Shown here: positions 15,001 to 47,729 of the stretch, piece after piece
Numbering within the stretch: position 1 is the stretch's first letter
Layout of the letters: each line of letters begins with the position of its first letter
Assembly (NCBI GenBank): GCA_041742395.1
Contig: JBGSIS010000005.1
Coordinates: forward strand, 18,696-82,695
Direction: 5' to 3'
Origin: Candidatus Saccharimonadales bacterium
Lineage (GTDB): Bacteria > Patescibacteriota > Saccharimonadia > Saccharimonadales > JACQNP01
Length of the DNA stretch: 64,000 nt
Translations under genes and position numbers: made by a program
Notes under the pieces: model-generated
The model's input: only the letters and a program-made list of their open reading frames with translations
Told to the model about the DNA's origin: nothing
The model's database searches: none

Positions 15001-15684
15001 CTTGAAGATTTTGAAAATATACTAAATGAGAAAACAGTCCCTATTAAATTAAAAAATAAAAAAAACGATAACAAAACAGTCACAGTTGGCGGTATAATTA
15101 CTGACAAAAGAGAGATAACTACAAAAAATGGCCAAAAAATGGCATTTGTAAAAATGGAGGACCTAATAAACGAAATTGAACTCATACTATTTCCTGGAGT
15201 TTACCAAGAAACCACCGGAATTTGGGAGAAAGACAATGTAGTTATTGCAAAAGGTAAGATAAATACAAAAAACAAAGACGGAGATGTAACAGACGAAATT
15301 AAAGTTCTAGTTAATGAGGCGAGAGAGTTGACTCCAGAACAGGCAGCAGCATATGTACCTACAGGCAAAAAAGTAAATTTAGCTGCTAAAAAAACAAAAA
15401 AATCTTCTGTTCCGAATGTCGTAAAAACTCTGCCCAAAGAAGGAATTGACGAGGTTGAAACCAAGCGACTTTACATAAGAGTAAATAGTACAAAGCAACA
15501 AGATGAGTTGATTAGTATAAAAAAACTGCTTGATGCAAATCATGGAGATACTGAAGTTGTATTGGTGATTGGAGAAAAAAGCAAGCAAGAGGCAATTCGT
15601 TTACCTCAGAAAACTGTTGTATCCGATAGACTTATTGAAGAACTTAGGTCTCACTTGGGTGACGGCAATATTGTTTTCAGCTAG
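12052..15684 (+). CDS. dnaE: DNA polymerase III alpha subunit
   Basis: 1210 aa. The N-terminal PHP domain (VHLHNHTQYSLLDG) and the polymerase core (GPGRGSAAGS, MPDIDIDI) are present. TTG start, 10 nt after GGGGG. Confidence 0.95.
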   Translation: MRKNIRSADYVHLHNHTQYSLLDGLTKVPDLIEYIKEKGMNAVAMTDHGTLSGSLEFYKEATANEVKPIIGIETYVAARSLHDKDPNKDKPNYHLILLAMNNKGYENLMRISTEANLNGFYYKPRVDHALLKKYNEGLIVLSGCIGGEIGDALRKDQYEQAKKTAIWYKSVFGDRYYFEVQDHGHPDHPSVWNEQVDVTRKTFKLAKELDIDCVLTCDAHYLRHEDQEAHEILLCVQTGSFLSDEKRMSLKNFELHVTDPKDLIERWGKENPEVITNTSKIAERCSVSIELGKILIPKFEVPEGYNEKTYLDENVFNGLVERYTDTKVSSQSVNNAKKLLPEKILKRAEYELSVIEQMGFNGYFLIIADFINWGKDQGIVFGPGRGSAAGSIIAYALKITELDPMAYDLLFERFLNPDRVSMPDIDIDIQDSRRDEVIQYCVDKYGENRVANIVTFGRMAARNAVRDVSRVLQVPYAEADRLAKMIPPPVQGRHIPLKKSIVDDPSLKQEYEANEQTKQIFDLAIQLEGTIRSHGVHAAGVVIAPDEIVKFTPLEMAQKGVVTTQYSMGPIEELGLLKMDFLGLSNLTIINNTLRIIRKVFKKDIILNSLPLDDSKTFELLKKGETTGVFQLESAGMKRYLKELKPTVFEDIIAMGALYRPGPLTAGLTDKFISRKNGLEKVSFDHQLMEPALRDTYGVMVYQEQFMQIVRDMCGFSGGESDTLRKAVGKKKRDMMAKMKTQVIDGAVKNGVDKVIVEKFWKDLEGFADYAFNKSHAACYGLISYQTAYLKAHYPGAFMAALMTSDFDDSDRLAIEITECKHMGIKVLPPDINESFVEFAVVPDKSEVRFGLAAIKNVGVGAVEELLSIREESGKFKDIDDFFTRINPRLINRKVIESLIKSGAFDSFERRDLLLHNIDILISLANKEYKRKSSGQTDLFGNDTEESTISIRNNLSEDFEKVENRQFLIWERELLGIYVSQHPLEDFENILNEKTVPIKLKNKKNDNKTVTVGGIITDKREITTKNGQKMAFVKMEDLINEIELILFPGVYQETTGIWEKDNVVIAKGKINTKNKDGDVTDEIKVLVNEARELTPEQAAAYVPTGKKVNLAAKKTKKSSVPNVVKTLPKEGIDEVETKRLYIRVNSTKQQDELISIKKLLDANHGDTEVVLVIGEKSKQEAIRLPQKTVVSDRLIEELRSHLGDGNIVFS

Positions 15685-16622
15685 AGGATGTTGCCAACGT
15701 TTCTTAACAATGTTATTCCTAGTATAATTAATCCAATTATTGTCGAGTCTATTAGAGGGTGATGAGTAACGAAATTTTTACTATCTTTAAATAGTTTTCT
15801 TAATCTAACAGTGTGACGCAGCATTAATATTGCAATTAAGAAGCCTACTCCAAACGTTACTGTTCCAATTAGCCATGTAGGCAAACTACTGGAAAGTGTT
15901 TCTACTCGACTTACAGACTTTTGAGAGGCAGTAACAACTTCAATTTTGGTATTGTTTTGATTGGAATCTTGTTTATCGGCAGTGTTTGGGGTTGGGGTTT
16001 GTTGGGTTACTTCTGGAGTTGTTTGAGACTTAGAAGCCAATACATAGGGCTTTCCATACATTGCAACCACTATAGTTTCTTGTCCGGAGTCGTTAAAATC
16101 ACTACTATTTGCATATCCAAAACCTACTTCAGTAAAATCTGAATCTAATAAGTTTTCTTTGTGAGACTGGCTGTTCATCCAGCCATTAATAGTGGTGTCG
16201 CTTGTCGTAAAGCCGTATGCTAGGTTTTCACCTGCTTTAAAGTAACTATAGCCAGAGGAGTTAATAAAAACCCAGGGCTCTTTACCATCGGGAGTATTAT
16301 GAGACCAGTAATTTCTTGTTACCATATCATTTGCTTTTGCTTGTGCGGCACTATTTAATTTATCGTTAATTGCTAACTCTCCTTTACCGTAGTTAGTTCT
16401 CTGAGAATTGGTGGAGCTCAATAACGACTGTCTGTTCATTTCAGTAGCATATGCTAGTGTTCCTTGTCGTGGATTTTGGCCGCTAATAAAAATACTTAGA
16501 AAAACAAGGATAGTCATTGGTAAATATGGAAAATAAGTATCCTGAAAATTTTTATTTCTTTTCTGATGATGACCAAATCTTTTTTTGTTGTACTCGGTCT
16601 TTATTTTAATTGCTTTTTTCAT
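15681..16622 (-). CDS. CAP/SCP/PR-1-like domain protein (YkwD-like) with terminal TM segments
   Basis: LNSAAQAKANDMVTRNYWSHNTP...YFKAGENLAYGF...INGWMNSQSHKENLL...FTEVGFGYA matches the CAP domain. There is a TM near the N-terminus and two near the C-terminus. Its stop overlaps the dnaE stop (CTAG). Confidence 0.7.
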   Translation of the reverse strand: MKKAIKIKTEYNKKRFGHHQKRNKNFQDTYFPYLPMTILVFLSIFISGQNPRQGTLAYATEMNRQSLLSSTNSQRTNYGKGELAINDKLNSAAQAKANDMVTRNYWSHNTPDGKEPWVFINSSGYSYFKAGENLAYGFTTSDTTINGWMNSQSHKENLLDSDFTEVGFGYANSSDFNDSGQETIVVAMYGKPYVLASKSQTTPEVTQQTPTPNTADKQDSNQNNTKIEVVTASQKSVSRVETLSSSLPTWLIGTVTFGVGFLIAILMLRHTVRLRKLFKDSKNFVTHHPLIDSTIIGLIILGITLLRNVGNIL

Positions 16623-17215: not shown

Positions 17216-18823
17216 ATGGGACAAGATGCTAGAAGAGAAGAAGAAAGTAATACACAAAGAAGAGCAAGAATTCTTGGATTAGACTACTACGACACATCAA
17301 CTTCTCCACCGGAGCAGAGAGTTAAGTATGATCTGCTTACACCTCAAGAGATAGAATCCATAAAAGTAGTTCCGGTTAATGCTAGTGAGCATAGCGTAGT
17401 GTTTGGAGTGACTAATACTACCTCTCAGCAAACCATGACTAATCTTCGGAATAGATTTCTTGATCAGAAAGTAAATTTTGCTTTAATTTCTGACAACGGC
17501 TACCGTGAGTACGTTAGGCTCTATAATCCACCAAAACAGGTTATTTACCATGACATAGAAGTCAACTCATCCGATAATGAATTAAATATTAAGAATGTTT
17601 CAGGTGTACTTGAGCAGGTCAGGGCAAGTGATATGTTAGCTTATCTCGTTCAGCAGGCACACAGACTCAACTCATCAGACATCCACGTAGAAGCTCAGAG
17701 AGGTTTTGCAAAAATAAGATTTAGAATTGATGGTGTTTTACATCCAATAGCAAAACTTTCTATGGAAAAATATAGGATTTTAATATCAGCAATTGCTAGT
17801 TCTGGAGATGTTTCTACTTCATCGGATGAAGCCCAACAAGGACATGTGTCTCAAAAAGTGAGAATGGAGGATGGCTCTGAAGTAGATATCAATCTAAGAT
17901 TAGAAACAGTTCAAACAGTCAATGGTATGGATATTGTAATGAGATTATTTAATATGGATGCCACCATGTACACACTGGACAAATTGCAACTTTCGCAGGA
18001 TGAACGAAAGGTAGTTGATGAGATAATCAGTAAACCTAGTGGACTTGTTATGGTCGTAGGCCCAACCGGGTCAGGAAAGACGACTACTCTATATTCAATT
18101 CTGAATACTTTAAACAGTGAAGAACGTAAAATCATAACTGTGGAAGACCCTGTAGAATATCAATTTCCTGGAATTAGTCAAATTTCAGTCACATCTAAAG
18201 GTCAAACAGCTAGTTCTTTTGCCGAAAAGCTAAAAGCGATTCTTAGGCTAGACCCGGACATTGTTATGGTTGGCGAGATTAGAGACCTTGATACTGCAAA
18301 AACTGCCTTACAGGCTTCACTCACTGGTCATCTAGTATTGTCAACGTTCCATGCTTCATCGGCATCTGCAGCTTTGACAAGAATTATGGACGTAGTCGGT
18401 GAAAACCCTCTTTTTGTATCTGCAATAAGATTAGTTATGGCTCAACGGCTTGTAAGATGCTTAGATGATTCAACTAAACAATCTTACCAACCGGACGAAG
18501 TTACTAAACAAAACATCCAAGAAGTTTTAAATACCTTGCCCAGTCACTTGCAAAAGCCAGATGTAAATAATTTAGTATTGTATAAACCTGGTTCTTCTCC
18601 ACAGAATCCTTATGGCTATAAGGGCCAAGTACCTCTAAGAGAACAATTTGTCATGACCGGAGAAATTCGGCTATTACTAGAATCAGGTAATAAGAATTTG
18701 TCAGCTCAGCAAATTGAAGAAGCAGCAATTAAAAGTGGCATGAAGACGATGCTACAAGATGGAATACTTAAGGTTTGTGAAGGTAAGACGACACTTGAAG
18801 AGGTCTATAGGGTTGTAGGATAG
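17216..18823 (+). CDS. pilB: Type II/IV secretion-system ATPase (PilB/GspE family)
   Basis: Walker A GLVMVVGPTGSGKTTTL, VEDPVEY, DIVMVGEIRD and the GspE N-terminal domain are present. Size is 535 aa. Confidence 0.85.
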   Translation: MGQDARREEESNTQRRARILGLDYYDTSTSPPEQRVKYDLLTPQEIESIKVVPVNASEHSVVFGVTNTTSQQTMTNLRNRFLDQKVNFALISDNGYREYVRLYNPPKQVIYHDIEVNSSDNELNIKNVSGVLEQVRASDMLAYLVQQAHRLNSSDIHVEAQRGFAKIRFRIDGVLHPIAKLSMEKYRILISAIASSGDVSTSSDEAQQGHVSQKVRMEDGSEVDINLRLETVQTVNGMDIVMRLFNMDATMYTLDKLQLSQDERKVVDEIISKPSGLVMVVGPTGSGKTTTLYSILNTLNSEERKIITVEDPVEYQFPGISQISVTSKGQTASSFAEKLKAILRLDPDIVMVGEIRDLDTAKTALQASLTGHLVLSTFHASSASAALTRIMDVVGENPLFVSAIRLVMAQRLVRCLDDSTKQSYQPDEVTKQNIQEVLNTLPSHLQKPDVNNLVLYKPGSSPQNPYGYKGQVPLREQFVMTGEIRLLLESGNKNLSAQQIEEAAIKSGMKTMLQDGILKVCEGKTTLEEVYRVVG

Positions 18824-24039: not shown

Positions 24040-25194
24040 ATGGATTTAGACATTAAACAGTTGGCCATGGCGCTAAAGGCAATTGCAGAAGAAAAGAACT
24101 TACCCGAAGACGTGGTACAAGAAGTTGTTGAACAGGCTCTTGCCGCAGCATATAGACGTGATTATGGTGACAGAGACCAAGAAGTTAGAGTTAATATGAA
24201 CCTAAATAACGGTGAGGTTGACGCATACATAACAAAAGAAGTAGTTGAGCGAGTTGGAGATGATAAATATGAGATCAGTCTAAGTGATGCTCAGGTAATG
24301 AAAAAGAACGCTCAAATCGGTGATATGATTGAGTTACATCAACCAGTTGAAAGTTTTGGACGGGTTGCTGCCCAGACTGCTAAACAAGTAATTCTTCAAC
24401 GACTAAGAGATGCAGAGCGAGAAATAATTATGAATGAATACGAAGACAAAATCGGTACGGTAATTAATGCTATTGTAGCTAGAGTAGAAGGAAGAGTAGT
24501 TAGAGTTGATCTAGGTAAAGCTCAAGGAATTATGCCTATGAGCGAACAGATACAGGGTGAGAGGTATTACCCTGGTCAACGTTTGAAAGTATTTCTTAAG
24601 GATGTCGAAAGAGGTTTTAGAGGACCTCAGTTAGTTGTTTCGCGAGGAAATACTGCATTTGTAGAGTGGTTATTTAAAGCTGAAGTTCCAGAAATGGAGA
24701 ACGGTGCTGTAGAAATAAAGGGTATTGCAAGAGAAGCTGGTGTAAGAACAAAAATCGCTGTAAGTAGTAATGTACCTGGTGTCGATCCGGTAGGTACTTT
24801 TGTTGGTGGACATGGAACACGAGTTAACGCAGTAATGAGCGAAATTGGCGAACAGGAAAAAATAGATATCGTAATTTGGGACGAAAATATAAAGAACTAC
24901 ATAATTAATAGTTTGAGTCCTACGAAAGTTGAGTCTGTTGAAATTGATGATTCAATTCAGAAAGCAAAGGTCATAGTTCCAAAGGATCAGCTAAGTATTG
25001 CTATCGGTAAGAGCGGTCAGAATGTACGTCTAGCAAGTAAATTAACTGGACACGATATTGATATTATTTCAGGTGAAGAAAAGGAAGAGGTAGTTGAAAA
25101 AGAAGAGCTAAAGCCGATAGCCCCTCCAAAACTCAAGAAGAAAGAGCAGCTAGAATCTAGCTTGTTAGAAGCCATCGAAGAACACGGCGAATAA
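24040..25194 (+). CDS. nusA: Transcription termination/antitermination factor NusA
   Basis: The N-terminal domain, S1 and tandem KH domains (IGKSGQNVRLASKLTG) are present. Size is 384 aa. RBS AAAGGAAAA. Confidence 0.95.
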   Translation: MDLDIKQLAMALKAIAEEKNLPEDVVQEVVEQALAAAYRRDYGDRDQEVRVNMNLNNGEVDAYITKEVVERVGDDKYEISLSDAQVMKKNAQIGDMIELHQPVESFGRVAAQTAKQVILQRLRDAEREIIMNEYEDKIGTVINAIVARVEGRVVRVDLGKAQGIMPMSEQIQGERYYPGQRLKVFLKDVERGFRGPQLVVSRGNTAFVEWLFKAEVPEMENGAVEIKGIAREAGVRTKIAVSSNVPGVDPVGTFVGGHGTRVNAVMSEIGEQEKIDIVIWDENIKNYIINSLSPTKVESVEIDDSIQKAKVIVPKDQLSIAIGKSGQNVRLASKLTGHDIDIISGEEKEEVVEKEELKPIAPPKLKKKEQLESSLLEAIEEHGE

Positions 25195-25761
25195 ATGAAA
25201 AACCCTGAGAAAGGTGCAGGGTGGGAAATAGTAAGAGAGTATACGGAACCAGAATTAGCAATTAAGGCTGGTATACAAGTATTGGATTTAATTGAAAGTG
25301 ACTCAAAATACATTCGAGAGTATGGAAACTACAATCGTCCCGGTCAAGAAAACTTAAAGTCATTTAGATTTTTTGCCTGGCATCCTGGTACTTTTCCGAA
25401 TCACCCAAACACTATTCAGGCCGATCCATTAGAATCCGCTAATGCAAGAGAACTAATTGATTTACACAGAAGATCTTCAAAGGTAGTGTCTCGAAAAGTT
25501 AATGCTGCTCAAATTAATGTATTTGAAGAACAGGGTCATACTTGGAGACACCGAGACAGATTTGTCGGTGAAAGTTTAGTGGTTTCATTATTAGGTTTAG
25601 GTCTAGTTCAAATTAAAGACCCTGTTTTTGGAACTAAACATAGTTATGAGTTGATCCCTGGAGATGCTTTGAAATTAAATAATCCTAGAAAACAATCGGA
25701 AAGGCCCTTGCATAAAGTTAGTAATATAGGAAAAGGAAAAAGAGTTACTTTGATTGAATAA
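25195..25761 (+). CDS. Hypothetical protein (188 aa) translationally coupled to nusA
   Basis: Its ATG immediately follows the nusA TAA. No recognisable motif; it is not YlxR-like. It is followed by a CIRCE hairpin. Confidence 0.5.
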   Translation: MKNPEKGAGWEIVREYTEPELAIKAGIQVLDLIESDSKYIREYGNYNRPGQENLKSFRFFAWHPGTFPNHPNTIQADPLESANARELIDLHRRSSKVVSRKVNAAQINVFEEQGHTWRHRDRFVGESLVVSLLGLGLVQIKDPVFGTKHSYELIPGDALKLNNPRKQSERPLHKVSNIGKGKRVTLIE

Positions 25762-25762
25762 A

Positions 25763-25789
25763 TTAGCACTCAGAGTTGACGAGTGCTAA
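25763..25789 (+). promoter_or_regulatory. CIRCE element (HrcA operator) upstream of clpC
   Basis: A perfect match to the consensus TTAGCACTC-N9-GAGTGCTAA, with N9 = AGAGTTGAC. Confidence 0.75.
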
Positions 25790-25804
25790 TTAATGAATTA
25801 TTAT
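25776..25804 (+). promoter_or_regulatory. Sigma70-like clpC promoter overlapping the CIRCE (-35 TTGACG in the CIRCE spacer, 17 nt, -10 TATTAT)
   Basis: TTGACG at 25776-25781 and TATTAT at 25799-25804. A leader of about 48 nt with SD AAAGGGG precedes the ATG at 25853. Confidence 0.55.
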
Positions 25805-25852
25805 TGTTTGTATAGCGTTTTAAATAGTTGCGCTAAAAGGGGTACAATAATT

Positions 25853-28327
25853 ATGATGCCAAACTCACAAAACTTTAATGAATTCTTAAATAACTTAACT
25901 GAAAATGCTCAAGCAAGTATTCGTCATGCTGACGCAATATCTAGGAGCTTTGGAAGTGCTTATATTGGAACTGAACATTTACTACTTGGTGTTTTAGCTC
26001 AAGATTCTTGTATTGGGTCAAAAATTCTTGAAGATGCAGGCGTTACTCTCGATAGGGCGAGATTAGCTTTAAATTTAACTCCAAAGACACTGGTCATAAA
26101 TTATGGCGGCAAAGGACTAAGTGAAACAGCTAAATTAACACTCAGAATGGCCTATGAATTCTCACAGGAATTTAATCAAGAGTACTGCGGAACTGAGCAC
26201 ATTTTATATAGCATTTTAAGTCAAAAAAATGCAAGAGCAACTATTTTGCTTAAAGACATGAACATTGACGTAGAGAAACTTCTTACAGAAATAGAACAGT
26301 TCTTAAATAGACAGCAATATGAAGGCAATGGAGATTCTACTACAAGGAAAAGGTCTAAGAACAAACGAAAAACAGCACTTGATTTCTTCGGTACAGATTT
26401 AACTGCTGAGGCAAGATCAAAAAAACTGGATCCCGTTGTTGGTCGAGAGAATGAAATAAGGAGAGTAATAACTATTCTTAATAGAAGAACAAAAAATAAT
26501 CCTGTTTTAATTGGTGAACCTGGAGTGGGAAAAACAGCAATAGTTGAAGGTCTTGCACAACGAATAATTTCTGATGATGTTCCAGATAGTCTGGTAGATA
26601 AAAGAATAGTTATGCTTGATCTTGCAGGCATGATTGCTGGCACAAAGTATCGAGGGGAATTTGAAGAACGACTCAAAAAAGTAATGACTGAATTAGAGAA
26701 TGACAGTAAGACTATTGTATTCATAGATGAACTTCATTTAATTGTTGGTGCTGGAGCAGCAGAGGGTGCAATGGACGCTGGAAATATTCTAAAACCAGCT
26801 CTTGCTAGAAGTAAAATACAGCTAATTGGAGCTACTACCACCGCAGAATATACTAAGCATATTGAAAAAGATGCAGCACTTGAAAGAAGATTTCAACCTA
26901 TACAAGTTCCCGAAACTTCGCCTACAGAGACAGTAGCTATTTTAAAAGGTCTTAAAAAGCATTATGAAGAATTTCATGGAGTGAGCATTGATGACGTTGT
27001 CATAGAAGACACTGTAATGTTAGCAAAAAGATATATAAATGATAGGTTTCTACCAGACAAGGCAATTGATTTGATTGATGAGACATCTGCACATATCAGG
27101 ATAGATAAGGGACGCACATCTCCAGAAGAGAGAAAACTCAAGAAGGAACTCAAGTTAGTTAATGGTCGAATCGAAGATGCAGTAGATAATGAAGATTACG
27201 AAAGAGCCGCGGAATATAAACAACGCGCAAGCCAAATTAATCAGCAACTTGTCGAATTAGAAAAAGCAAATAAAAACAATAGAACTCTTAAAGTAACAAG
27301 TGAAGATGTTGCATCGGTAGTTTCGCGTATAACAGGAGTGCCGGTAAGTAAGGTTATTAAGTCAGAAGCTAAATACTTGCTTAATTTGGAGAACATTATT
27401 TCCAAGCACGTTATTGGTCAAGAAGAAGCGATAAATGCTGTATCAAGAGCAATAAGGCGAAACAGGGTAGGTATTGCAAGTGAAAAACGACCAATTGGAT
27501 CATTTATTTTCTTGGGTCCCACTGGAGTAGGAAAGACAGAGTTAGCAAGGGTATTATCACGAGAGTTTTTTGGAAGTGAGGATGCTTTAGTAAAAATAGA
27601 TATGAGTGAGTTTAGTGAACGACATACGGTCTCTAGGCTAGTAGGTGCACCAGCAGGATACGTTGGCTATGATGAAGGCGGGCAGTTGACCGATAAAATT
27701 AGACGCCAACCCTATAGTCTAGTGCTTTTTGATGAAATAGAGAAAGCTCATCCGGAAATATTTAATATGTTACTTCAAATATTAGAAGATGGAGTTTTGA
27801 CGGATGCCAAAGGTAGAAAAATAGATTTCACAAATACTATTATAATAATGACCAGTAATCTAGGTGCAGATAAACTTCAAAAAGAAGCACATCTTGGCTT
27901 TCACGTTTCAACCAAAAAAGAAAATCAAGATCTTGAAGAACTACATAAAACCAATCAGGAGAAAGTGCGTGATGAGTTAAAGAAAATGTTAAGACCTGAA
28001 TTATTAAATCGAATTGATAAGACTATAGTTTTCAGGGCTCTGACAGTATCGAACGTTGAGAAGATTTTAGACCTCCAGATTGGTGAATTAAAAAAGAGGT
28101 TAGTAAAGCACGGGATAGGTCTAAAACTAACTAATTCAGCAAAGAAATATTTACTTGATAACGGATATGACCCACTGAATGGAGCCAGGCCTTTAAGACG
28201 ATTAATTCAGGATACAATTGAGGATCATTTATCTATTAAATTACTTGAAGAAGAATATCATAAGGGTGCGATTATAAAGGTTTCGGCTAAAAATAGCGGT
28301 TTAGCTTATAGTATAGTTCAAGAGTAA
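25853..28327 (+). CDS. clpC: ATP-dependent Clp protease ATP-binding subunit ClpC (class III AAA+)
   Basis: Clp-N repeats, two AAA+ modules ([14 protein letters not shown] and [14 protein letters not shown]) and a UVR-like linker are present. I chose the start at MMPNSQ because the 25793 ATG lies inside the promoter and CIRCE. Confidence 0.9.
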
Positions 28328-28339
28328 TGCTAGAATAAA

Positions 28340-29314
28340 ATGGTGAAAACGAAGTTAAGATTATTCACTAATGTGATTTCTATAGTTTTATTAATATTAG
28401 TTGTTTTCGCCTACTTTCAAAGACAACAGATATATGACTGGTACCGACTAAGAGGATATAATCCTTCAGCCGAAATTGTAGCATTAGCTGAATTAACTAC
28501 TATGAACAGTGAAGGTAGGCGATTATTTTACATTAATCAGCCTGATATTCAGGACAAAGAGGAATTTTCGCAAAACTGCACAATTGCTGAAGAAAGTATT
28601 ATTTTAGGTTGCTATGTATCAAATAGCGGAATTTATATTTATGATGTAAAGGATGAAAGATTGAGCGGTATAGAAGAAGTTACTGCTGCTCATGAAATGC
28701 TTCACGCAGCTTACGATAGACTTTCAGATAAAGAAAGAAACAAGATAGATAGCTTAACTAGCGAAGAGCTTACAAAAATAAGTAACGAAAGACTGCTTAA
28801 AACAATTGAAAGTTATCGTAAAAGAGATCCTAGCGTTATACCCAACGAACTCCATTCAATACTTGCTACTGAAGTAAAAGACTTATCACCAGAATTAGAG
28901 GAATATTATTCACGTTATTTCGAAAGGAGACTTACTATTGTTGAGTTATCAGAAAAGTACGAAAGTAATTTTACTGAACTTGAAGACCGAGCCGATAAAT
29001 ACAAGCAGCAGTTAGATAGCTTGAAGCAGGAGATCGATAAACTAAACCAAGAGCTTACCGCGGAAGCAGAAGAATTAAGTGACGATTACGATAGTTTACA
29101 ATCTAGCAGAAATTCTAGCTCCGCTGATGTTTTTAATGAAAACGCAAGATTATATAACTTGAGAGTAAACGAATATAATTATCAAGTCACTATTGTTACC
29201 AAAAAAATAGATAGCTACAATTCAATTCTATCTGATTACAATTCAATAATTACCCAAGAGAACGAACTATACAACGCAATTGACAGCAGACCAAAAACTA
29301 TTAACAGCCAGTAG
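28340..29314 (+). CDS. Hypothetical membrane-anchored protein with an HEXXH motif and a C-terminal coiled-coil
   Basis: N-terminal TM (VISIVLLILVVFAYF), then AAHEMLHAAY (HExxH), then Q/E/L-rich heptads. Confidence 0.5.
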   Translation: MVKTKLRLFTNVISIVLLILVVFAYFQRQQIYDWYRLRGYNPSAEIVALAELTTMNSEGRRLFYINQPDIQDKEEFSQNCTIAEESIILGCYVSNSGIYIYDVKDERLSGIEEVTAAHEMLHAAYDRLSDKERNKIDSLTSEELTKISNERLLKTIESYRKRDPSVIPNELHSILATEVKDLSPELEEYYSRYFERRLTIVELSEKYESNFTELEDRADKYKQQLDSLKQEIDKLNQELTAEAEELSDDYDSLQSSRNSSSADVFNENARLYNLRVNEYNYQVTIVTKKIDSYNSILSDYNSIITQENELYNAIDSRPKTINSQ

Positions 29315-29331
29315 TTTGTTAGAATATATAT

Positions 29332-30675
29332 ATGGCAAAGCAAAAAATTAAATATCAGTGTAATAGTTGTGGAGCAATCTCTTTGACATGGAGCGGAAAA
29401 TGCTATAGCTGTGGCGAGTGGAATACGCTAAGTGAAAAAATTGATGAACAAGATATAAAGTCTTTTGCCAGTAGTGGGAACAAGCTAATAATTCAATCAT
29501 TGAAAGAATCAACAAAAAAAGATCACAAACGACTGGTAAGTAATCTTAATGAATTCGATGAAATGATTGGAGGGGGAATTGTAAGGGGTAGTGTAAACCT
29601 AATTGCAGGTCAACCGGGTATCGGAAAAAGTACTTTGCTTCTTCAGATTGCATTTAATTTGTCTAAGAACTACAAGGTATTATATGTTAGTGGTGAAGAG
29701 TCACTGCATCAGATTGGTATGCGAGCAAAGAGATTGGGTGTACTGAGCGATAGTATTGAAATTGCTACAAGTAATGTGGCTGATGACATAGCTAAGAGTA
29801 TTTTAGAATCATCCTATGATTTGATAATTGTAGATTCTATTCAGACTATAAGTTGTAATGGCGTAAGTTCTGTAGCTGGATCCGTTAGTCAAATAACCAA
29901 TAGCACGAACATGTTGACATACTCAGCAAAAAAATCAGACACAGCACTTATAATTGTTGGACATGTAACCAAAGAAGGATCAATCGCTGGACCAAAAGTA
30001 TTAGAGCATTTAGTGGATGTGGTGCTTCAGATCGAAGGTGACAGGTATGGCGGTTTCAAAATTATTCGACCAATAAAAAACCGTTTTGGCTCAACTAGCG
30101 AATCAGCAATTTTTGAAATGACAGAAAAGGGAATGGAACCAGTAGATAACCCGTCTGCTGCATTACTAGCCGAAAGACAAGTTACTGATGGTTCAGTCGT
30201 TATGGCCACTATAGAGGGCTCAAGACCATTATTGGTCGAAGTTCAAGCCTTAGTTAACAAAACAAGCTATGGCTATCCAAAAAGGGCTGCTAGTGGCATT
30301 GATCTAAATAGATTAAATCTCCTAGTAGCAATGCTAGAAAAGCGCACCAAAATTGATTTATCTGATAAAGATATATATATCAATATTGTTGGAGGCATAA
30401 AGTTGAACGAACCTGCTAGTGACTTGGCTATTTGTATGGCAATTGCTTCTGCATCAAAATCGATGATGCTAAAGAAGAATCTTGTAGTATTTGGTGAAAT
30501 TGGACTTTCTGGTGAGATTCGTCATGTTCCTCATATTGATAAAAGGATAAAAGAAGCCACTAAACTTGGTTTTGATGGAGCAGCTGGTCCAATATCCACT
30601 AAAAAGATTAATAAATACCTTGGTTTTAGAAATATAAAAGAAATACTAAATAATTTGTTAGAGAAAGATTTATAA
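29332..30675 (+). CDS. radA: DNA repair protein RadA/Sms
   Basis: C4 zinc finger (CNSCGAISLTWSGKCYSCGEW), Walker A GQPGIGKSTLLLQ, KNRFG and the Lon-like C-terminal domain are present. Confidence 0.95.
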   Translation: MAKQKIKYQCNSCGAISLTWSGKCYSCGEWNTLSEKIDEQDIKSFASSGNKLIIQSLKESTKKDHKRLVSNLNEFDEMIGGGIVRGSVNLIAGQPGIGKSTLLLQIAFNLSKNYKVLYVSGEESLHQIGMRAKRLGVLSDSIEIATSNVADDIAKSILESSYDLIIVDSIQTISCNGVSSVAGSVSQITNSTNMLTYSAKKSDTALIIVGHVTKEGSIAGPKVLEHLVDVVLQIEGDRYGGFKIIRPIKNRFGSTSESAIFEMTEKGMEPVDNPSAALLAERQVTDGSVVMATIEGSRPLLVEVQALVNKTSYGYPKRAASGIDLNRLNLLVAMLEKRTKIDLSDKDIYINIVGGIKLNEPASDLAICMAIASASKSMMLKKNLVVFGEIGLSGEIRHVPHIDKRIKEATKLGFDGAAGPISTKKINKYLGFRNIKEILNNLLEKDL

Positions 30676-31368
30676 ATGGAATTAATTCAAATCTTATTAC
30701 TAGTCACAATACTAGTAGTTTTGGTTAATAAAAAGCAAAATAATGAAAAAAAGATCCCGACCCTTAAGGGTGGTTCCAAAAAAGTAGTCATTGATTCTTG
30801 TGGTCTAATTGATGGCAGGATAACTAATCTGGTAGAATCTGGTTTTATTTCAGATAAACTAGTCGTACCCGAAATAGTACTAAAAGAATTACAGCAACTT
30901 GCCGACGGAAGAGATAGTCATAAGAGGGAGAGGGCGAGATACGGTTTAGACGTCGCAAAGTTACTTCAAGATAATAAAAGTACTGAATTCGAGATTGAAA
31001 GGACCGTAAAGGGTCCTAGTGAAAAAACAGACGACATCCTTGTACAGATTTGCAAAAAATCTGGGGATAAATTGTACACTACTGATTTTAATCTAACTAA
31101 ACTTGCTGAAATAGAGGGAGTCATGGTGTTAAATGTGAACGAACTAGCACAGCAACTCAGATCAATTGCACTTCCAGGAGAAAAGATACAAGTTAAAATT
31201 ATGCAAAAAGGAAGTAATCCTAGGCAGGGTGTTGGGTATCTTGACGATGGAACTATGGTAGTGATTGATGATGCCGCTAAGTTAAAAGGTAGAGTTGTAA
31301 AAGGCGAAGTAGTTAAGGTTCATCAGACAGTTGCAGGAAAGATGATCTTTGCTGTTAAGTCGAACTAG
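30676..31368 (+). CDS. yacL: PIN/TRAM domain protein (YacL-like)
   Basis: N-terminal TM, PIN (VVIDSCGLIDGRI) and a C-terminal TRAM-like beta domain (GRVVKGEVVKV) are present. Its ATG directly follows the radA stop. Confidence 0.75.
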   Translation: MELIQILLLVTILVVLVNKKQNNEKKIPTLKGGSKKVVIDSCGLIDGRITNLVESGFISDKLVVPEIVLKELQQLADGRDSHKRERARYGLDVAKLLQDNKSTEFEIERTVKGPSEKTDDILVQICKKSGDKLYTTDFNLTKLAEIEGVMVLNVNELAQQLRSIALPGEKIQVKIMQKGSNPRQGVGYLDDGTMVVIDDAAKLKGRVVKGEVVKVHQTVAGKMIFAVKSN

Positions 31369-42009: not shown

Positions 42010-43293
42010 ATGCAAGTAAAACACACTAACCCTAAAGACACTGAAGCAGTAATTACTATTGTTGCTTCAACAGTAGAATTACTAAAAATTAAAGAAAACG
42101 TACTTAAAAAGTTAGCTGAGAACGTCAAGATAACTGGATTTCGTCCAGGAAAAGCTCCACTTAATTTAGTCGAGAAACAAGTCGACGAAAATGTATTACA
42201 ATCGGAATTTCTTGATCAGGCAATTAATCAGATTTATCCGCAAGCTGTTAACTCTGAAAAATTACGTCCTGTAGGAAACCCGGAAATTTCTGTTAAAAAA
42301 TTTGTACCGTTTGATTCATTAGAATTTGAAGCAAAAGTTGAAATTGTAGGTAAGATAACTTTACCTGATTATAAGAAGCTTGATCTGCAAAAAGACAAAG
42401 TTTCAGTTACCGCTAAGGACGTCGATGAAGTACTCAAATCTCTACAGAAAAGAATGGGAGAGAAAAAAGACGTTGACCGAAAATCAAAACAAAATGACCA
42501 GGTTTGGATTGATTTTATCGGTAAAGACAAAGATGGAAAGCCAGTCAGTGGTGCTGACGGCAAAGACTACCCTTTAGTACTCGGAAGTAAAACTTTCATT
42601 CCAGGATTTGAAGAAAACCTAGAAGGACTAAAAGCAGGTGACGAAAAAACTTTTACTTTAACTTTCCCTAAGGATTATGGTGTTAAAGCACTTGCTAGTA
42701 AGAAAGTAACATTTACAGTTACTTTGAATAAAGTTCAAGAAGTAGTTGAGCCACAAATTGATGATGAGTTTGCTAAGAAATCTGGACCATTTAATGATTT
42801 AAAAACGCTGAAGGAAGATATTAAGAAGCAACTAACTTTTGAAAAAGAAAATCAAATCGAACGAGAGTATGAATCAAAAATAGTAGAAGAAATAACTGAG
42901 AAGTCAAAAGTAGCCATACCTAATACACTCATAGAAGAACAAAAAGAAATCATGCTAAGAGAATTCAAGCAAAACTTAGCTTATAGAGGACAGACATATA
43001 GCGAGTATCTTGAAATGCAGGGCTTTACAGAAGACGATTTGATCAAGAATGAAGTATTACCAGAAGCCCAGAAGAGAGTAAAGGCAAGTTTGGTCTTAAC
43101 AGAAATTTCTGAAATTGAAAATATTGATGTTAGTATGGAAGAAATCAATGACAGAAAGACTGCATTGAAGTCACAATATCAAGATCAAGCAATGCGAGAC
43201 GAGCTAGATAAGCCAGAAAATCTAAACAGTTTAGCTTCTAGGATTGTGACCGAAAAAACCCTAGCTAAGTTGAAGACGTATATTAAAAAGTAA
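42010..43293 (+). CDS. tig: Trigger factor
   Basis: The N-terminal ribosome-binding motif (GFRPGKAP), an FKBP-like PPIase domain and a C-terminal arm are present. Size is 427 aa. Confidence 0.9.
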   Translation: MQVKHTNPKDTEAVITIVASTVELLKIKENVLKKLAENVKITGFRPGKAPLNLVEKQVDENVLQSEFLDQAINQIYPQAVNSEKLRPVGNPEISVKKFVPFDSLEFEAKVEIVGKITLPDYKKLDLQKDKVSVTAKDVDEVLKSLQKRMGEKKDVDRKSKQNDQVWIDFIGKDKDGKPVSGADGKDYPLVLGSKTFIPGFEENLEGLKAGDEKTFTLTFPKDYGVKALASKKVTFTVTLNKVQEVVEPQIDDEFAKKSGPFNDLKTLKEDIKKQLTFEKENQIEREYESKIVEEITEKSKVAIPNTLIEEQKEIMLREFKQNLAYRGQTYSEYLEMQGFTEDDLIKNEVLPEAQKRVKASLVLTEISEIENIDVSMEEINDRKTALKSQYQDQAMRDELDKPENLNSLASRIVTEKTLAKLKTYIKK

Positions 43294-43297
43294 TAAT

Positions 43298-43324
43298 TTA
43301 GCACTCTTGACACTAGAGTGCTAA
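43298..43324 (+). promoter_or_regulatory. CIRCE element (HrcA operator) upstream of clpP
   Basis: A perfect match TTAGCACTC-N9-GAGTGCTAA, with N9 = TTGACACTA. Confidence 0.75.
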
Positions 43325-43336
43325 ATAGACTACTAT
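43307..43336 (+). promoter_or_regulatory. Sigma70-like clpP promoter overlapping the CIRCE (-35 TTGACA in the CIRCE spacer, 18 nt, -10 TACTAT)
   Basis: TTGACA at 43307-43312 and TACTAT at 43331-43336. SD AAGGA precedes the ATG at 43361. Confidence 0.5.
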
Positions 43337-43360
43337 ATATTCATAATTAAGGATGTATTT

Positions 43361-43957
43361 ATGAATAAACCACAAAATTCAGTATTAGTTCCAACCGTTA
43401 TAGAAACCGATGGAAGAATGGAGCGTGCATTTGACATCTATTCTCGGCTGCTTAAAGATAGGATTATATTTTTAGGTTCAGATGTTAATGAACACACCGC
43501 AAACTTAGTAGTGGCTCAATTATTATTTCTAGATAATGAAGACTCTAAGAAAGACATATATTTCTATATAAATAGTCCTGGTGGTAGTGTTTATGACGCT
43601 CTAGCGATTTACGACACAATGCAATACGTAAAAAGCGACATTCAAACTGTAGGAATTGGCGTGCAAGCTTCGGCAGCGGCTTTCTTGCTAAGTAGTGGAA
43701 CTGTAGGTAAACGAATGATATTACCAAACGCTACTGTAATGATTCATCAGCCTTCTTCCGGAACAAGAGGAAAAGTCACTGATATGGAAATAGACCTAAA
43801 AGAGTCAATTCGAATAAAGCACCGCTTAAACGAAATTATGGCAGAAAATACAGGGCAGACAGTAAAACGCATAAATGAAGATATGGAGCGTGATTATTGG
43901 ATGACTGCAGATGAAGCAAAGAAGTACGGTGTAGTAGACAAAGTAATCAAGAAATAA
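43361..43957 (+). CDS. clpP: ATP-dependent Clp protease proteolytic subunit
   Basis: The ClpP region around the catalytic residues (Ser in [11 protein letters not shown], His in MIHQPSSG, Asp) is present. Size is 198 aa. Confidence 0.95.
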
Positions 43958-44138
43958 AAAACTTGACAGTATAAGTTTGATACTTCACACTACTACGATA
44001 AGAAGTAGTGTACATTCGGGCTGTGCTAGTTAGTGCGCAAATCTAGCACCAAAAACGTTCGTGTAGTGGTCTTCGGATTTTCAAACAACTAAATTTATAA
44101 ATATTAATCGCTAATTTATAGTGGGAGTAGAGTTGTCT

Positions 44139-47100
44139 ATGGCAAAAAGCATTGCGAAAGCAAGTACTTTAAAAAAATCTAAAAGAAAATATTTTTCTGA
44201 AAATAATCAGTTAATTGATCTACCGAATTTGGTTGATCATCAAAACAAATCTTTTCAGTGGTTCGTTGATGAAGGTTTAGGAGAGCTTTTGGCTGAAATC
44301 AGTCCAATCGACGACTATACATCAACCAAATTATCATTAAGATTTAAAGATTATAAATTTGAAAATCCCAAAATCACAGAAGATGAAGCTAGAGAAAATA
44401 ACGTAAGTTATGAAGCACCATTAAAGGCAGTTGTTGAACTTACCAATAAAGTAACTGGAGAAGTTAAAGACCAAGAAATCTACCTTGGTGATTACCCATG
44501 GATGACAAACCGTGGAACTTTTGTAATTAACGGTGCCGAGAGAGTTGTTGTATCCCAGTTGATTCGTTCAGCAGGTGTTTTCTTTACGTCAGAAATACAA
44601 GGAACAAAGAAAGCGTATGGAGCAAAAGTAATTCCTGGAAGGGGTGCTTGGCTTGAATTCGAAACTGCCACTTCAGGAGCTATGTTTGTTAAAATCGATC
44701 GTAAAAGAAAGATAGCAGTTACAACTTTACTTAAGGCTCTTGGAATGACTGAATCTCAAATCAAAGAAGCTTTTAAGCATGTTAACCAGGGTGCGGTAAA
44801 TTATATAGAATCTACCTTAGATAAAGACCCCAGCAAAGGTACAAACGAGGCATTAATCGAAGTTTATAGAAGATTACGACCAGGTGACTTAGCTACCGTA
44901 GATAATGCCAGAAGCTTAATTGAGAACATGTTCTATAACTACAAGCGTTTTGACTTTAGTCGGGTTGGTCGCTATAAAATTAATAAGCGTCTTGACTTGG
45001 ATATACCTAACACTATCGATAACCGTGTAATGCGACTAGAAGACCTGAAAGCTATTGTTGCTGAGATTATACGACTAAATAATACTCAAGAGCCGGCTGA
45101 CGACATAGATTCTTTAGCTAATCGAAGAGTTAAATTGGTTGGTGAACTCGTACAAAGACAATTCAGGATTGGTCTACTAAGAATGGAAAGAAATACCAAA
45201 GACCGAATGAGCATGTGCGAAATAGAAACTGTAACTCCAGCACAATTAATTAATGCTAGACCTATAGTTGCAGCTGTTCGGGAATTTTTTGCTAGCTCAC
45301 AACTTTCTCAATTCATGGATCAGATTAATCCACTTAGTGAATTAGCTCATAAAAGAAGACTTAGTTCTATGGGTCCTGGCGGGTTGAGCCGAGAAAGAGC
45401 AGGTTTCGAAGTTCGTGATGCTCACGCTACTCACTACGGTAGAATTTGTGCTGTTGAGACACCAGAGGGTGCAAACATTGGACTAGTTCTAAACCTAGCA
45501 AGCTACGCCACAATTAATGATTATGGGTTCGTAGAAACTCCATATAGAAAAGTTATCAACGCCGTGACCTCTAAAGAGGCAGTTGGACATATAGCATCAG
45601 TTAATCTTGAAGACGAGAATGGTAAGGTAATTGTAAAAGCAGGATCAAAAATATCATCAGATGATGCAAAAAAACTCGCTGCAGTTAAAGCTCAAAAAAC
45701 ATGGCCTGTTCGAGCAAAAGTAACAAATGATGTAATTTACCTTGATGCGTCAGAAGAAGAGTCGGCCGTTATTGCAAGCGCAAGCGAAAAGTATGACAAA
45801 GATGGTTATTTTGAAAGCGAACGTGTTTCAGCTAGAAGTTATCTTAAAGCCGGTGAGGTAGATTCTGATGACGTTACTCATATAGATGCATCTAATAAAC
45901 AAATTATTGGATCTAGTGCTGGACTTATCCCGTTTATTGAAAAAAACTATGTTTATCGATCACTTATGGGAAGCAACCAGCAGAGACAAGCTGTACCTCT
46001 TATTAACCCGCGTTCGCCAATTGTCGGTACCGGTTTAGAAGAAGTAGTTGCTAGAAATAGTGGACAACTTGTTGTTGCTGAAGATGATGGAGAAGTAACT
46101 AAAGCTACTGGAGACGAGGTTGTAGTCAAGTATAAAACAGGTTCAGTAAGCTATAAGCCACAGCATTTCATTAGAAGTAACGAGGGAAGTTCAATTAACC
46201 AGAAAGTTGTTGTTGAATCTGGCGATAAAGTAAAGTCTGGCGATCCAATTATTGAAGGTATGTCTGTATCTGATGGCGAACTAGCTCTTGGAAGGGATCT
46301 TCGTGTGGCATTCATGCCATGGGCCGGATATAACTTTGAGGATGCGATAATCGTTTCTCGCAAACTTGTTGAAGATGATGATCTTACGTCTGTTCATATT
46401 GTTGATTTTATGGTTGAAGTTCGTGAAACAAAACTAGGTCCAGAAATTGTAACTCGTGACATACCTAATGTTTCAGAAGATGCCCTTAGACATCTAGATG
46501 AAGAAGGCATTGTTACAATTGGCGCAGAAGTTCATCCAGGTGATATTCTTGTAGGTAAAATTACTCCTAAAGGAGAGCAGGAACTAAGCAGCGAAGAGCG
46601 TCTACTAAGAGCAATATTTGGTGAAAAGGCAAAAGAAGTTAGAGATACTTCTCAACGTATGCCTAATGGTAAGCACGGTAAAGTTGTTGGAGTAAAAATA
46701 TTTTCTAAAGAAAATGGACATGATCTTAAAGCTGGTGTAATTATGCAGATTCAAGTATTCGTTGCACAAATGAGAAAGATTTCTGTTGGCGACAAACTTG
46801 GTGGCCGTCACGGTAATAAGGGTGTCATTGCTAGAGTACTTCCTATTGAAGACATGCCATTTACAGAAGACGGTGAACCAGTCGACATTATCCTTAACCC
46901 TCTAGGTGTGCCTAGTCGTATGAATATCGGGCAGCTTTTTGAAACTCATCTTGGTATGGCTGCTCACATGCTTGGCATGAAAGTTGCCAGCCCATCTTTT
47001 GACGGAGTCGAGATTAAGAAAATCCAAGAACTACTTAAAGAAGCTGGTTTACCAGAAGATGGAAAACAACAATTGTTTGACGGTAGAACTGGTGAGCCAT

Positions 47101-47729
47101 TCTCAGAACGAACAACAGTTGGTGCCATGTATATGATTAAGCTTAACCATATGATTGCTGATAAAATTCATGCTCGTTCTACTGGTCCTTACACAATGGT
47201 CACCCAACAGCCTCTCGGTGGAAAAGCTCAGAACGGTGGTCAGAGATTTGGAGAGATGGAAGTTTGGGCTCTAGAAGCATACGGGGCAGCAAACACTCTT
47301 CAGGAAATGCTTACTATCAAGTCAGATGATGTTTATGGTAGGTCAAAAGCATACGAGTCAATTATCAAACAAACAGAAATTGTTGGACCTAAAGTACCAG
47401 AAAGCTTTAATGTTTTAGTTAAAGAGTTACAAGGACTTGGCTTAAAGGTTGATTTGGTCTCAAACGATCAAGTTATAGATGCAGAAGAAGTACTAGCAGA
47501 AAACATTAAGGATGAAGCTGCACACCTTTCAGACGTTGCAGTACCAGCTCCGTTAGCTTCGGAAGTTGATGTAACCGAGGATGCAGTATTAGGTGAGTTT
47601 GATGTTATCGATCTAAGCGATACGAACACACAGGTTTCAACTATTGATGAGCAAGAAATTGCCGAGATGGTGGCCGAAGAAGATATAACAGTTGCAATTG
47701 ATGAACAGGAAGGAAAGGAGATAGCTTAA
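44139..47729 (+). CDS. rpoB: DNA-directed RNA polymerase beta subunit
   Basis: All conserved RpoB regions are present (rifampicin cluster region, GDKLGGRHGNKGV). I chose the ATG at 44139 with GGGAG upstream; the ORF track starts at GTG 44121. Confidence 0.95.
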   Translation: MAKSIAKASTLKKSKRKYFSENNQLIDLPNLVDHQNKSFQWFVDEGLGELLAEISPIDDYTSTKLSLRFKDYKFENPKITEDEARENNVSYEAPLKAVVELTNKVTGEVKDQEIYLGDYPWMTNRGTFVINGAERVVVSQLIRSAGVFFTSEIQGTKKAYGAKVIPGRGAWLEFETATSGAMFVKIDRKRKIAVTTLLKALGMTESQIKEAFKHVNQGAVNYIESTLDKDPSKGTNEALIEVYRRLRPGDLATVDNARSLIENMFYNYKRFDFSRVGRYKINKRLDLDIPNTIDNRVMRLEDLKAIVAEIIRLNNTQEPADDIDSLANRRVKLVGELVQRQFRIGLLRMERNTKDRMSMCEIETVTPAQLINARPIVAAVREFFASSQLSQFMDQINPLSELAHKRRLSSMGPGGLSRERAGFEVRDAHATHYGRICAVETPEGANIGLVLNLASYATINDYGFVETPYRKVINAVTSKEAVGHIASVNLEDENGKVIVKAGSKISSDDAKKLAAVKAQKTWPVRAKVTNDVIYLDASEEESAVIASASEKYDKDGYFESERVSARSYLKAGEVDSDDVTHIDASNKQIIGSSAGLIPFIEKNYVYRSLMGSNQQRQAVPLINPRSPIVGTGLEEVVARNSGQLVVAEDDGEVTKATGDEVVVKYKTGSVSYKPQHFIRSNEGSSINQKVVVESGDKVKSGDPIIEGMSVSDGELALGRDLRVAFMPWAGYNFEDAIIVSRKLVEDDDLTSVHIVDFMVEVRETKLGPEIVTRDIPNVSEDALRHLDEEGIVTIGAEVHPGDILVGKITPKGEQELSSEERLLRAIFGEKAKEVRDTSQRMPNGKHGKVVGVKIFSKENGHDLKAGVIMQIQVFVAQMRKISVGDKLGGRHGNKGVIARVLPIEDMPFTEDGEPVDIILNPLGVPSRMNIGQLFETHLGMAAHMLGMKVASPSFDGVEIKKIQELLKEAGLPEDGKQQLFDGRTGEPFSERTTVGAMYMIKLNHMIADKIHARSTGPYTMVTQQPLGGKAQNGGQRFGEMEVWALEAYGAANTLQEMLTIKSDDVYGRSKAYESIIKQTEIVGPKVPESFNVLVKELQGLGLKVDLVSNDQVIDAEEVLAENIKDEAAHLSDVAVPAPLASEVDVTEDAVLGEFDVIDLSDTNTQVSTIDEQEIAEMVAEEDITVAIDEQEGKEIA

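Follow-up and report, generated by a model that had tools for sequence, protein, structure and literature searches.

We report here that the inverted repeat at 25763-25789 of the window, by which we mean the whole 64-kb stretch of DNA analyzed, is a bona fide CIRCE as judged by its sequence, position, and conservation. Very probably, this element acts as a functional HrcA operator that is fused to the sigma-70-type promoter of the clpC operon, and the same module is predicted to control clpP.

Perfect CIRCE operators overlap the predicted clpC and clpP promoters

At 25763-25789, the sequence TTAGCACTC-AGAGTTGAC-GAGTGCTAA is identical to the CIRCE consensus TTAGCACTC-N9-GAGTGCTAA in 18/18 specified positions, which confirms the exact match claimed in the original prediction. 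That prediction also placed a -35 box inside the operator and a -10 box 17 nt beyond it. The same pair scored highest in our promoter scan (10/12), with TTGACG at 25776-25781 on the + strand, composed of spacer positions 5-9 and the adjoining base of the right arm, and TATTAT at 25799-25804 on the same strand. We refer to operators with TTGAC at spacer positions 5-9 as class B; the operator itself is listed without a strand. The CIRCE is situated between genes, and this best-scoring -35/-10 pair of the region overlaps with it.

The clpC open reading frame, as assigned mechanically, begins with an ATG at 25793, which is located 3' of the operator but still 5' of the -10 box. We prefer ATG 25853 as the likely start codon of clpC. 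It is preceded at a distance of 10 nt by AAAGGGG (25836-25842, + strand), which on reading the sequence is a likely ribosome-binding site. The clpC leader contains a second, weaker promoter-like match, TTTAAA-18-TACAAT at 25819-25848 (9/12). Promoter-like matches in both intergenic regions are no more frequent than in shuffled sequences, and the promoter assignment thus depends on the comparative data presented below.

Also in the clpC leader there is a short inverted repeat, TATAGCG-N13-CGCTAAA (25811-25837), which probably arose by chance. We considered it as a further CIRCE of degenerate sequence near +1 and dropped this possibility because its spacing does not fit a CIRCE. An RNA thermometer was likewise dropped, given that the segment 25808-25860 folds no better than shuffled sequences (z = -0.32). 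Across the whole window, Rfam models at gathering thresholds matched a tRNA-Leu only, and no known leader or riboswitch was found at either CIRCE.

A twin operator upstream of clpP had been predicted as well, and a second perfect CIRCE, TTAGCACTC-TTGACACTA-GAGTGCTAA (18/18, again without strand), is indeed present at 43298-43324, with the clpP module positioned 17.5 kb downstream of the clpC module. Here TTGAC occupies spacer positions 1-5, an arrangement that we designate class A. The -35 box TTGACA (43307-43312, + strand) lies within the operator spacer and is followed after 18 nt by the -10 box TACTAT (43331-43336, + strand), a pair that scores 10/12 and is the best in the scan. The clpP gene (43361-43957, + strand; 198 aa) has AAGGA at 43349-43353 before its start, tig upstream, and rpoB downstream. 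Both clp promoters of the window carry a single operator of the type that contains the -35 box.

When up to three mismatches were allowed, exactly these two CIRCE sites were found in the window, which has a G+C content of 36.7%. The chance expectation from dinucleotide-preserving shuffles is 0.03 matches, and two matches occurred in 0/100 shuffles. The next-best candidate of the window has four mismatches and a spacer of the wrong length (8 nt).

Genes adjoining the two operators

The product of clpC (25853-28327, + strand) is a protein of 824 aa for which Pfam reports Clp_N, AAA, AAA_lid_9, AAA_2, and ClpB_D2-small domains as well as a weak UVR match, corresponding to two AAA+ modules and a short middle domain. 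Its best relatives in the PDB are the ClpC proteins of Staphylococcus aureus and Bacillus subtilis, each with one full-length alignment; ClpB structures align to it in two pieces. At residues 681-683 it carries LGF, which corresponds in position to the docking loop of ClpP-binding unfoldases. Domain content, structural alignments, and this loop bear out the assignment as a ClpC-type double AAA+ ATPase, and the assignment of clpP downstream of the twin CIRCE held as well.

Downstream of clpC on the + strand follow a gene for a coiled-coil protein without a family (324 aa; 28340-29314, after a gap of 12 nt), radA (29332-30675, after 17 nt), and a gene encoding a PIN+TRAM protein (30676-31368, after 0 nt). 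Judging from this spacing, clpC, the coiled-coil gene, radA, and the PIN+TRAM gene form a probable operon at 25853-31368. On the 5' side of clpC there are nusA and then an open reading frame of 188 aa without a family, so that the gene order in 24040-31368 is nusA, the 188-aa orphan, clpC, the coiled-coil orphan, radA, and PIN+TRAM. The clpC-radA-PIN/TRAM order, as we see it, recalls the Firmicutes clpC-radA-disA-yacL cluster, minus ctsR-mcsA-mcsB. The 324-aa protein, which occupies the position of disA, had no family match.

The second CIRCE is located between tig and clpP, with rpoB-rpoC after clpP (42010-47729). No clpX adjoins clpP in this tig-clpP-rpoB arrangement (42010-47729). ClpP may have its main or sole partner in the CIRCE-controlled ClpC, which carries the LGF loop. 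Unrelated to the operators, the window also encodes a T2SSE (PilB-like) secretion ATPase at 17216-18823 and a CAP/SCP-domain protein at 15681-16622.

Conservation of the operators among relatives

The TyrRS gene is located midway between the two CIRCEs, and we used it to fetch 80 loci from species-representative genomes. The TyrRS relatives share 54-68% identity, and almost all carry the label Saccharibacteria, Saccharimonadales, or Patescibacteria, as taken from record titles and source names. The window is thus assigned to the Saccharibacteria (TM7), as a Saccharimonadales-like member. These 80 loci contain 73 CIRCE sites with at most three mismatches, 51 before clpC (after nusA), 22 before clpP (after tig), and none elsewhere. 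Among the starts with enough upstream sequence, a CIRCE was present within 300 nt upstream of 41/41 clpC and 22/22 clpP genes. The CIRCEs of the relatives carry up to three mismatches, and both sites of the window are perfect.

Within the arms, the core positions 2 and 4-9 and their partners are essentially invariant, and changes are confined to the pairs 1/27 and 3/25. These outer changes are mostly non-compensatory, as exemplified by pair 3/25 with 17 A-C versus 1 G-C. An invariant core combined with non-compensatory changes at the outer positions indicates a protein-binding site and not a hairpin selected for its structure.

The same comparison bears on a different interpretation, in which the inverted repeat serves mainly as an RNA hairpin, that is, as a terminator or stability element for the upstream transcripts (nusA and the 188-aa open reading frame at one site, tig at the other). 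Both repeats begin 1-4 nt past the upstream stop codon, and they fold with -14.1 and -16.1 kcal/mol (z-scores of -3.3 and -4.5), as would suit such a role. However, the + strand has no U-tract after either hairpin, and no terminator was called there by the scan. The sequence of the arms is invariant beyond what pairing requires among species with TyrRS proteins only 54-68% identical, the prevailing A-C combinations at pair 3/25 do not restore pairing, and the same sequence precedes hrcA, dnaK, and groES. We consider it extremely unlikely that the repeat is mainly an RNA hairpin, and we treat it in the following as an operator. A Rho-independent terminator in particular was rejected, since the hairpins are present but a T-run on the + strand is missing at either site.

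TTGAC in the CIRCE spacer as a -35 element

Considering the 73 sites of the relatives together with the two of the window, TTGAC is present in the spacer of 70/75 sites, of which 50/75 belong to class A and 20/75 to class B. The remaining 5/75 sites have TTGCA, TTGTA, or TTGAT at spacer position 1, and the other spacer positions vary freely. We then asked where a strong -10 box, defined as a match of at least 5/6 with A2 and T6, is placed in the pool of all non-redundant sites collected (183). In class A, 113/164 sites have a strong -10 box at 31-33 nt from the operator start, and in class B it is found at 36-37 nt in 16/19 sites. The 4-nt displacement of TTGAC between the two classes is mirrored by the -10 box, and TTGAC is therefore a true -35 element and not an extension of the operator. 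As a control, we examined perfect CIRCEs from unrelated IMG/VR contigs; among their 98 distinct spacers, class A was found in 0/98 and class B in 4/98. On the basis of these sequence comparisons, TTGAC in the CIRCE spacer is a real -35.

It could be argued that the CIRCE is real, that TTGAC merely extends the operator, and that the clpC promoter is located elsewhere, for example at the TTTAAA-18-TACAAT match downstream of the operator. A 9/12 match does exist there, and promoter-like matches are not commoner in these regions than in shuffles. An extended operator, however, would hold a fixed register relative to the arms, whereas TTGAC is found in two registers 4 nt apart, always facing the gene and with the -10 box shifting equally, and the remaining spacer positions show the free variation described above. 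In addition, TACAAT at 25843-25848 would put the transcript start at or inside the start codon. A clpC promoter outside the operator is thus, in our judgment, very unlikely, and the -35 element within the CIRCE is retained as that of the predicted clpC promoter.

A short HrcA and its predicted regulon

To describe the wider regulon we scanned metagenomes with the class A pattern, TTGAC being required at spacer positions 1-5, which yielded at least 120 contigs with 123 sites listed. Among these 123 sites listed, which stem from a TTGAC-requiring pattern and hence say nothing on the share of CPR CIRCEs without an embedded -35, the first gene after the class A CIRCE is HrcA-like at 34, dnaK at 27, clpC at 17, hsp20 at 10, clpP at 5, groES/groEL at 5, a Zn-ribbon protein gene at 5, and unassigned at 11, with another 9 sites too near to a contig end to call a gene. 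The operator was thus found before groES/EL, before the dnaK operon, and before hrcA, that is, before the core of an HrcA regulon at the level of the lineage.

The HrcA-like proteins have 217-245 aa (about 234 aa), except for a single one with 275 aa. Their PF01628 matches exceed the gathering score, and PF03444 was additionally matched by two out of three proteins tested. A database search with one of them as the query gave 8000 matches at E<=1e-10; the best 120 of these 8000 are all at least 83% identical to the query and 230-283 aa long, all but one having at most 251 aa, and several among these best 120 bear the NCBI name "[Candidatus Saccharimonadales bacterium]". An hrcA-grpE...dnaK-dnaJ neighborhood is present in the Saccharimonadales assemblies GCA_035479655.1 and GCA_964634155.1 and on a 1.12-Mb contig, and in these loci a TTGAC-bearing CIRCE precedes both hrcA and dnaK. 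Genes for the short HrcA of Saccharimonadales/CPR, which has about 226-245 aa, are found at L152:5514-6215, at L201-L204:8001-8705, and elsewhere in L081-L200. More distant short HrcAs lie behind the same type of operator in Falkowbacteria, Harrisonbacteria, and other Patescibacteria.

The PF01628 match of the short HrcA spans profile positions 73-215 only. When an AlphaFold model of the short HrcA (pLDDT 88) was superimposed onto the structure of Thermotoga maritima HrcA (1stz_A, 338 aa), the TM score was 0.85 normalized to the query and 0.63 normalized to the target, indicating that about 100 residues of the characterized HrcA are absent from the short form. It is possible that dimerization and GroEL dependence of the short HrcA differ from those of characterized HrcAs.

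The dnaK promoters of Saccharibacteria-like contigs usually contain two CIRCEs 45-48 bp apart, for example at L152:7161-7234, L203:12967-13041, L108:2960-3031, and L154:1309-1381. The upstream CIRCE holds the -35 TTGAC, and the downstream one, at about +1, is without TTGAC and more degenerate. Only the upstream type is found at clpC and clpP. On contig L162, a class A CIRCE was observed 55 nt before an open reading frame in minus-strand orientation that encodes an 869-aa Clp/Hsp100 protein, 44-52% identical to ClpC of the window. By its length this protein may be a ClpB, in which case clpB may belong to the regulon of some lineages. In a transcriptome of TM7x, genes annotated as clpB and clpP go up together (10.1101/2022.03.25.485537), which is the one experimental hint at derepression by heat or misfolding.

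Neither the 64-kb window nor the 80 TyrRS-centered loci gave a match to probes for hrcA, groEL, dnaK, and ctsR, and in none of the stretches fetched did hrcA share a contig with a CIRCE-clpC/clpP site. We infer from the lineage that the source genome encodes hrcA. If this genome had instead lost hrcA, the operators would be relics or would be bound by another regulator, and the failure to find hrcA within the 64-kb window is in keeping with such a loss. Yet unselected sites would decay, and we judge a relic unlikely because both sites of the window match at 18/18 positions while relatives tolerate 1-3 mismatches. The 8000 matches obtained with E<=1e-10 further attest to the great abundance of HrcA homologues in Saccharimonadales data. 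Taken together, loss of hrcA with relic or reassigned operators has a very low probability, and HrcA is retained as the regulator predicted to act at both sites.

From these comparisons we conclude that the lineage possesses an HrcA that is autoregulated through the same operator design and has the classical chaperone targets, to which Saccharibacteria add clpC and clpP.

HrcA and CtsR as candidate regulators of Clp genes

The conserved CIRCE sites at clpC and clpP and the lineage hrcA with the same operator support, by comparison, the HrcA-type control of Clp genes that the original prediction had suggested. It had further supposed that the stress regulon may be centered on Clp and not on CtsR. 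The part concerning CtsR is supported. For the CtsR heptad repeat RGTCAAA-NAN-RGTCAAA, the window contains 15 matches with at most three mismatches versus 13 expected, and 0 in the clpC and clpP intergenic regions. The genes ctsR-mcsA-mcsB are absent directly 5' of clpC, where nusA and the 188-aa orphan open reading frame are located instead, and a CtsR probe had no match in the window or in L001-L080. The part concerning Clp does not stand, since in the lineage the operator is also found on hrcA, dnaK, groES/EL, and hsp20. The sequence comparisons thus describe a classical chaperone regulon enlarged by ClpC and ClpP, and not a regulon centered on Clp.

Proposed mechanism

In other bacteria, HrcA binds CIRCE and represses transcription, and it is inactivated by heat or when unfolded proteins draw GroEL away. 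It has been established in other species that HrcA depends on GroE for its activity and that operators overlapping the core promoter can mediate repression (PMC6032397). HrcA binding, promoter occlusion, and induction by heat or protein misfolding at the clp promoters are inferred here from sequence. With the -35 hexamer formed by operator spacer and right arm, an HrcA dimer on both arms would cover DNA needed by sigma region 4. An HrcA dimer bound to 25763-25789 would thus cover the -35 at 25776-25781 and exclude RNA polymerase, resulting in repression by occlusion. Upon loss of HrcA activity, RNA polymerase would gain access and clpC would be transcribed. Relief under stress would raise the level of ClpC and, if co-transcribed, of RadA and the PIN/TRAM protein, and the twin module would raise ClpP likewise. 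A single repressor would in this manner co-ordinate chaperones (dnaK, groES/EL, hsp20), hrcA itself, and the ClpCP protease. As the promoter is placed inside the operator, clpC and clpP transcripts that begin at the predicted positions, close to 25811 and 43343, respectively, would not include their operators, which sets them apart from B. subtilis with its CIRCE located further downstream.

It is tempting to extend this model, and we do so tentatively because the extension may well turn out to be wrong. A truncated HrcA of about 234 aa could be the single master regulator of proteostasis in Saccharibacteria, possibly in Patescibacteria/CPR more widely, acting on chaperones and ClpCP through the fusion of the -35 into CIRCE in two registers and replacing the CtsR, sigma-32, HspR, and ClgR circuits.

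Relation to known systems

The HrcA/CIRCE system of B. subtilis (groESL and hrcA-grpE-dnaK-dnaJ) has the identical operator consensus and a repressor of the same family (PF01628, PF03444). Like the class I regulon of B. subtilis, the lineage described here has an autoregulated hrcA and targets dnaK and groE. In B. subtilis, CIRCE follows the -10 box and is situated in the vicinity of the transcription start, and the regulon consists of two chaperone operons. By contrast, in the present case clpC and clpP are targets, the -35 is inside the spacer, and the repressor lacks about 100 aa.

In the Mollicutes Mycoplasma gallisepticum and Spiroplasma melliferum, CIRCE has been described before clpB, lon, and dnaK (PMC4245973, PMC5138195). 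The likeness extends to reduced genomes, to HrcA being among very few regulators, and to AAA+ protease or disaggregase targets, and some Mollicutes promoters have tandem CIRCEs, as observed at dnaK of Saccharibacteria-like contigs. The Mollicutes targets are clpB and lon, however, and not clpC and clpP, and no -35-in-spacer design was described for them (PMC4245973, PMC5138195). HrcA of proteobacteria has groESL as its constant target, and the proteases there are under sigma-32 (PMC545781).

The CtsR class III regulon of Firmicutes comprises the same targets, clpC and clpP, in a similar neighborhood (clpC, radA, PIN/TRAM); here, however, the operator is a CIRCE, no CtsR repeat is found above chance, and clpC lacks ctsR-mcsA-mcsB on its 5' side. 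The title of an earlier report names dual control of Streptococcus salivarius clpP by CtsR and HrcA (Chastanet & Msadek 2003, title cited in PMC6305308). As far as this title tells, clpP as a CIRCE/HrcA target has a precedent in which HrcA acts together with CtsR, whereas here CIRCE is the sole recognizable operator and clpC is controlled as well. In Helicobacter pylori, HrcA sites are near or overlap the -35 and -10 boxes, and repression occurs via the core promoter (PMC6032397), so that the operators there overlap core promoter elements as do those of the present study.

In the literature searched, we found no paper relevantly linking HrcA with Saccharibacteria, Patescibacteria, or the candidate phyla radiation. 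Relative to that literature, four features appear to be new, namely, the lineage, the control of clpC together with clpP where no CtsR signal is present, the near-universal fusion with the -35 in two registers, and the shortened repressor. HrcA and CIRCE are old and well understood, and the advance is incremental in this respect. Very little is known about the control of transcription in Saccharibacteria/CPR, for which this locus and its relatives supply a concrete circuit composed of an operator, a sigma-70-type promoter (TTGAC, 16-18 nt, TAnnnT), and a candidate repressor. In the predicted regulon, chaperones and the ClpCP protease share a single protein-folding sensor, and the circuit illustrates how stress control may be consolidated in a reduced genome. 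The circuit further provides promoter and operator parts as well as marker genes for cultivable strains, for example, Nanosynbacter lyticus TM7x.

Occurrence of similar operators in other contigs

The -35-in-spacer design is not exclusive to CPR. The class A pattern is also present in high-GC contigs, before groES and before a small Zn-ribbon gene. In L087, L090, L103, L134, and L177 (62-69% G+C), a class A CIRCE precedes the gene for a small Zn_ribbon_8 protein whose tail is rich in serine and which we take to resemble the HrcA-regulated Rv0991c/Ruc of Mycobacterium tuberculosis. Several perfect CIRCEs were observed on single IMG/VR contigs classified as viral, with three copies 49 bp apart at L261:5424-5548, two copies 37 bp apart at L284:7037-7100, and two copies 332 bp apart at L269:4885-5243.
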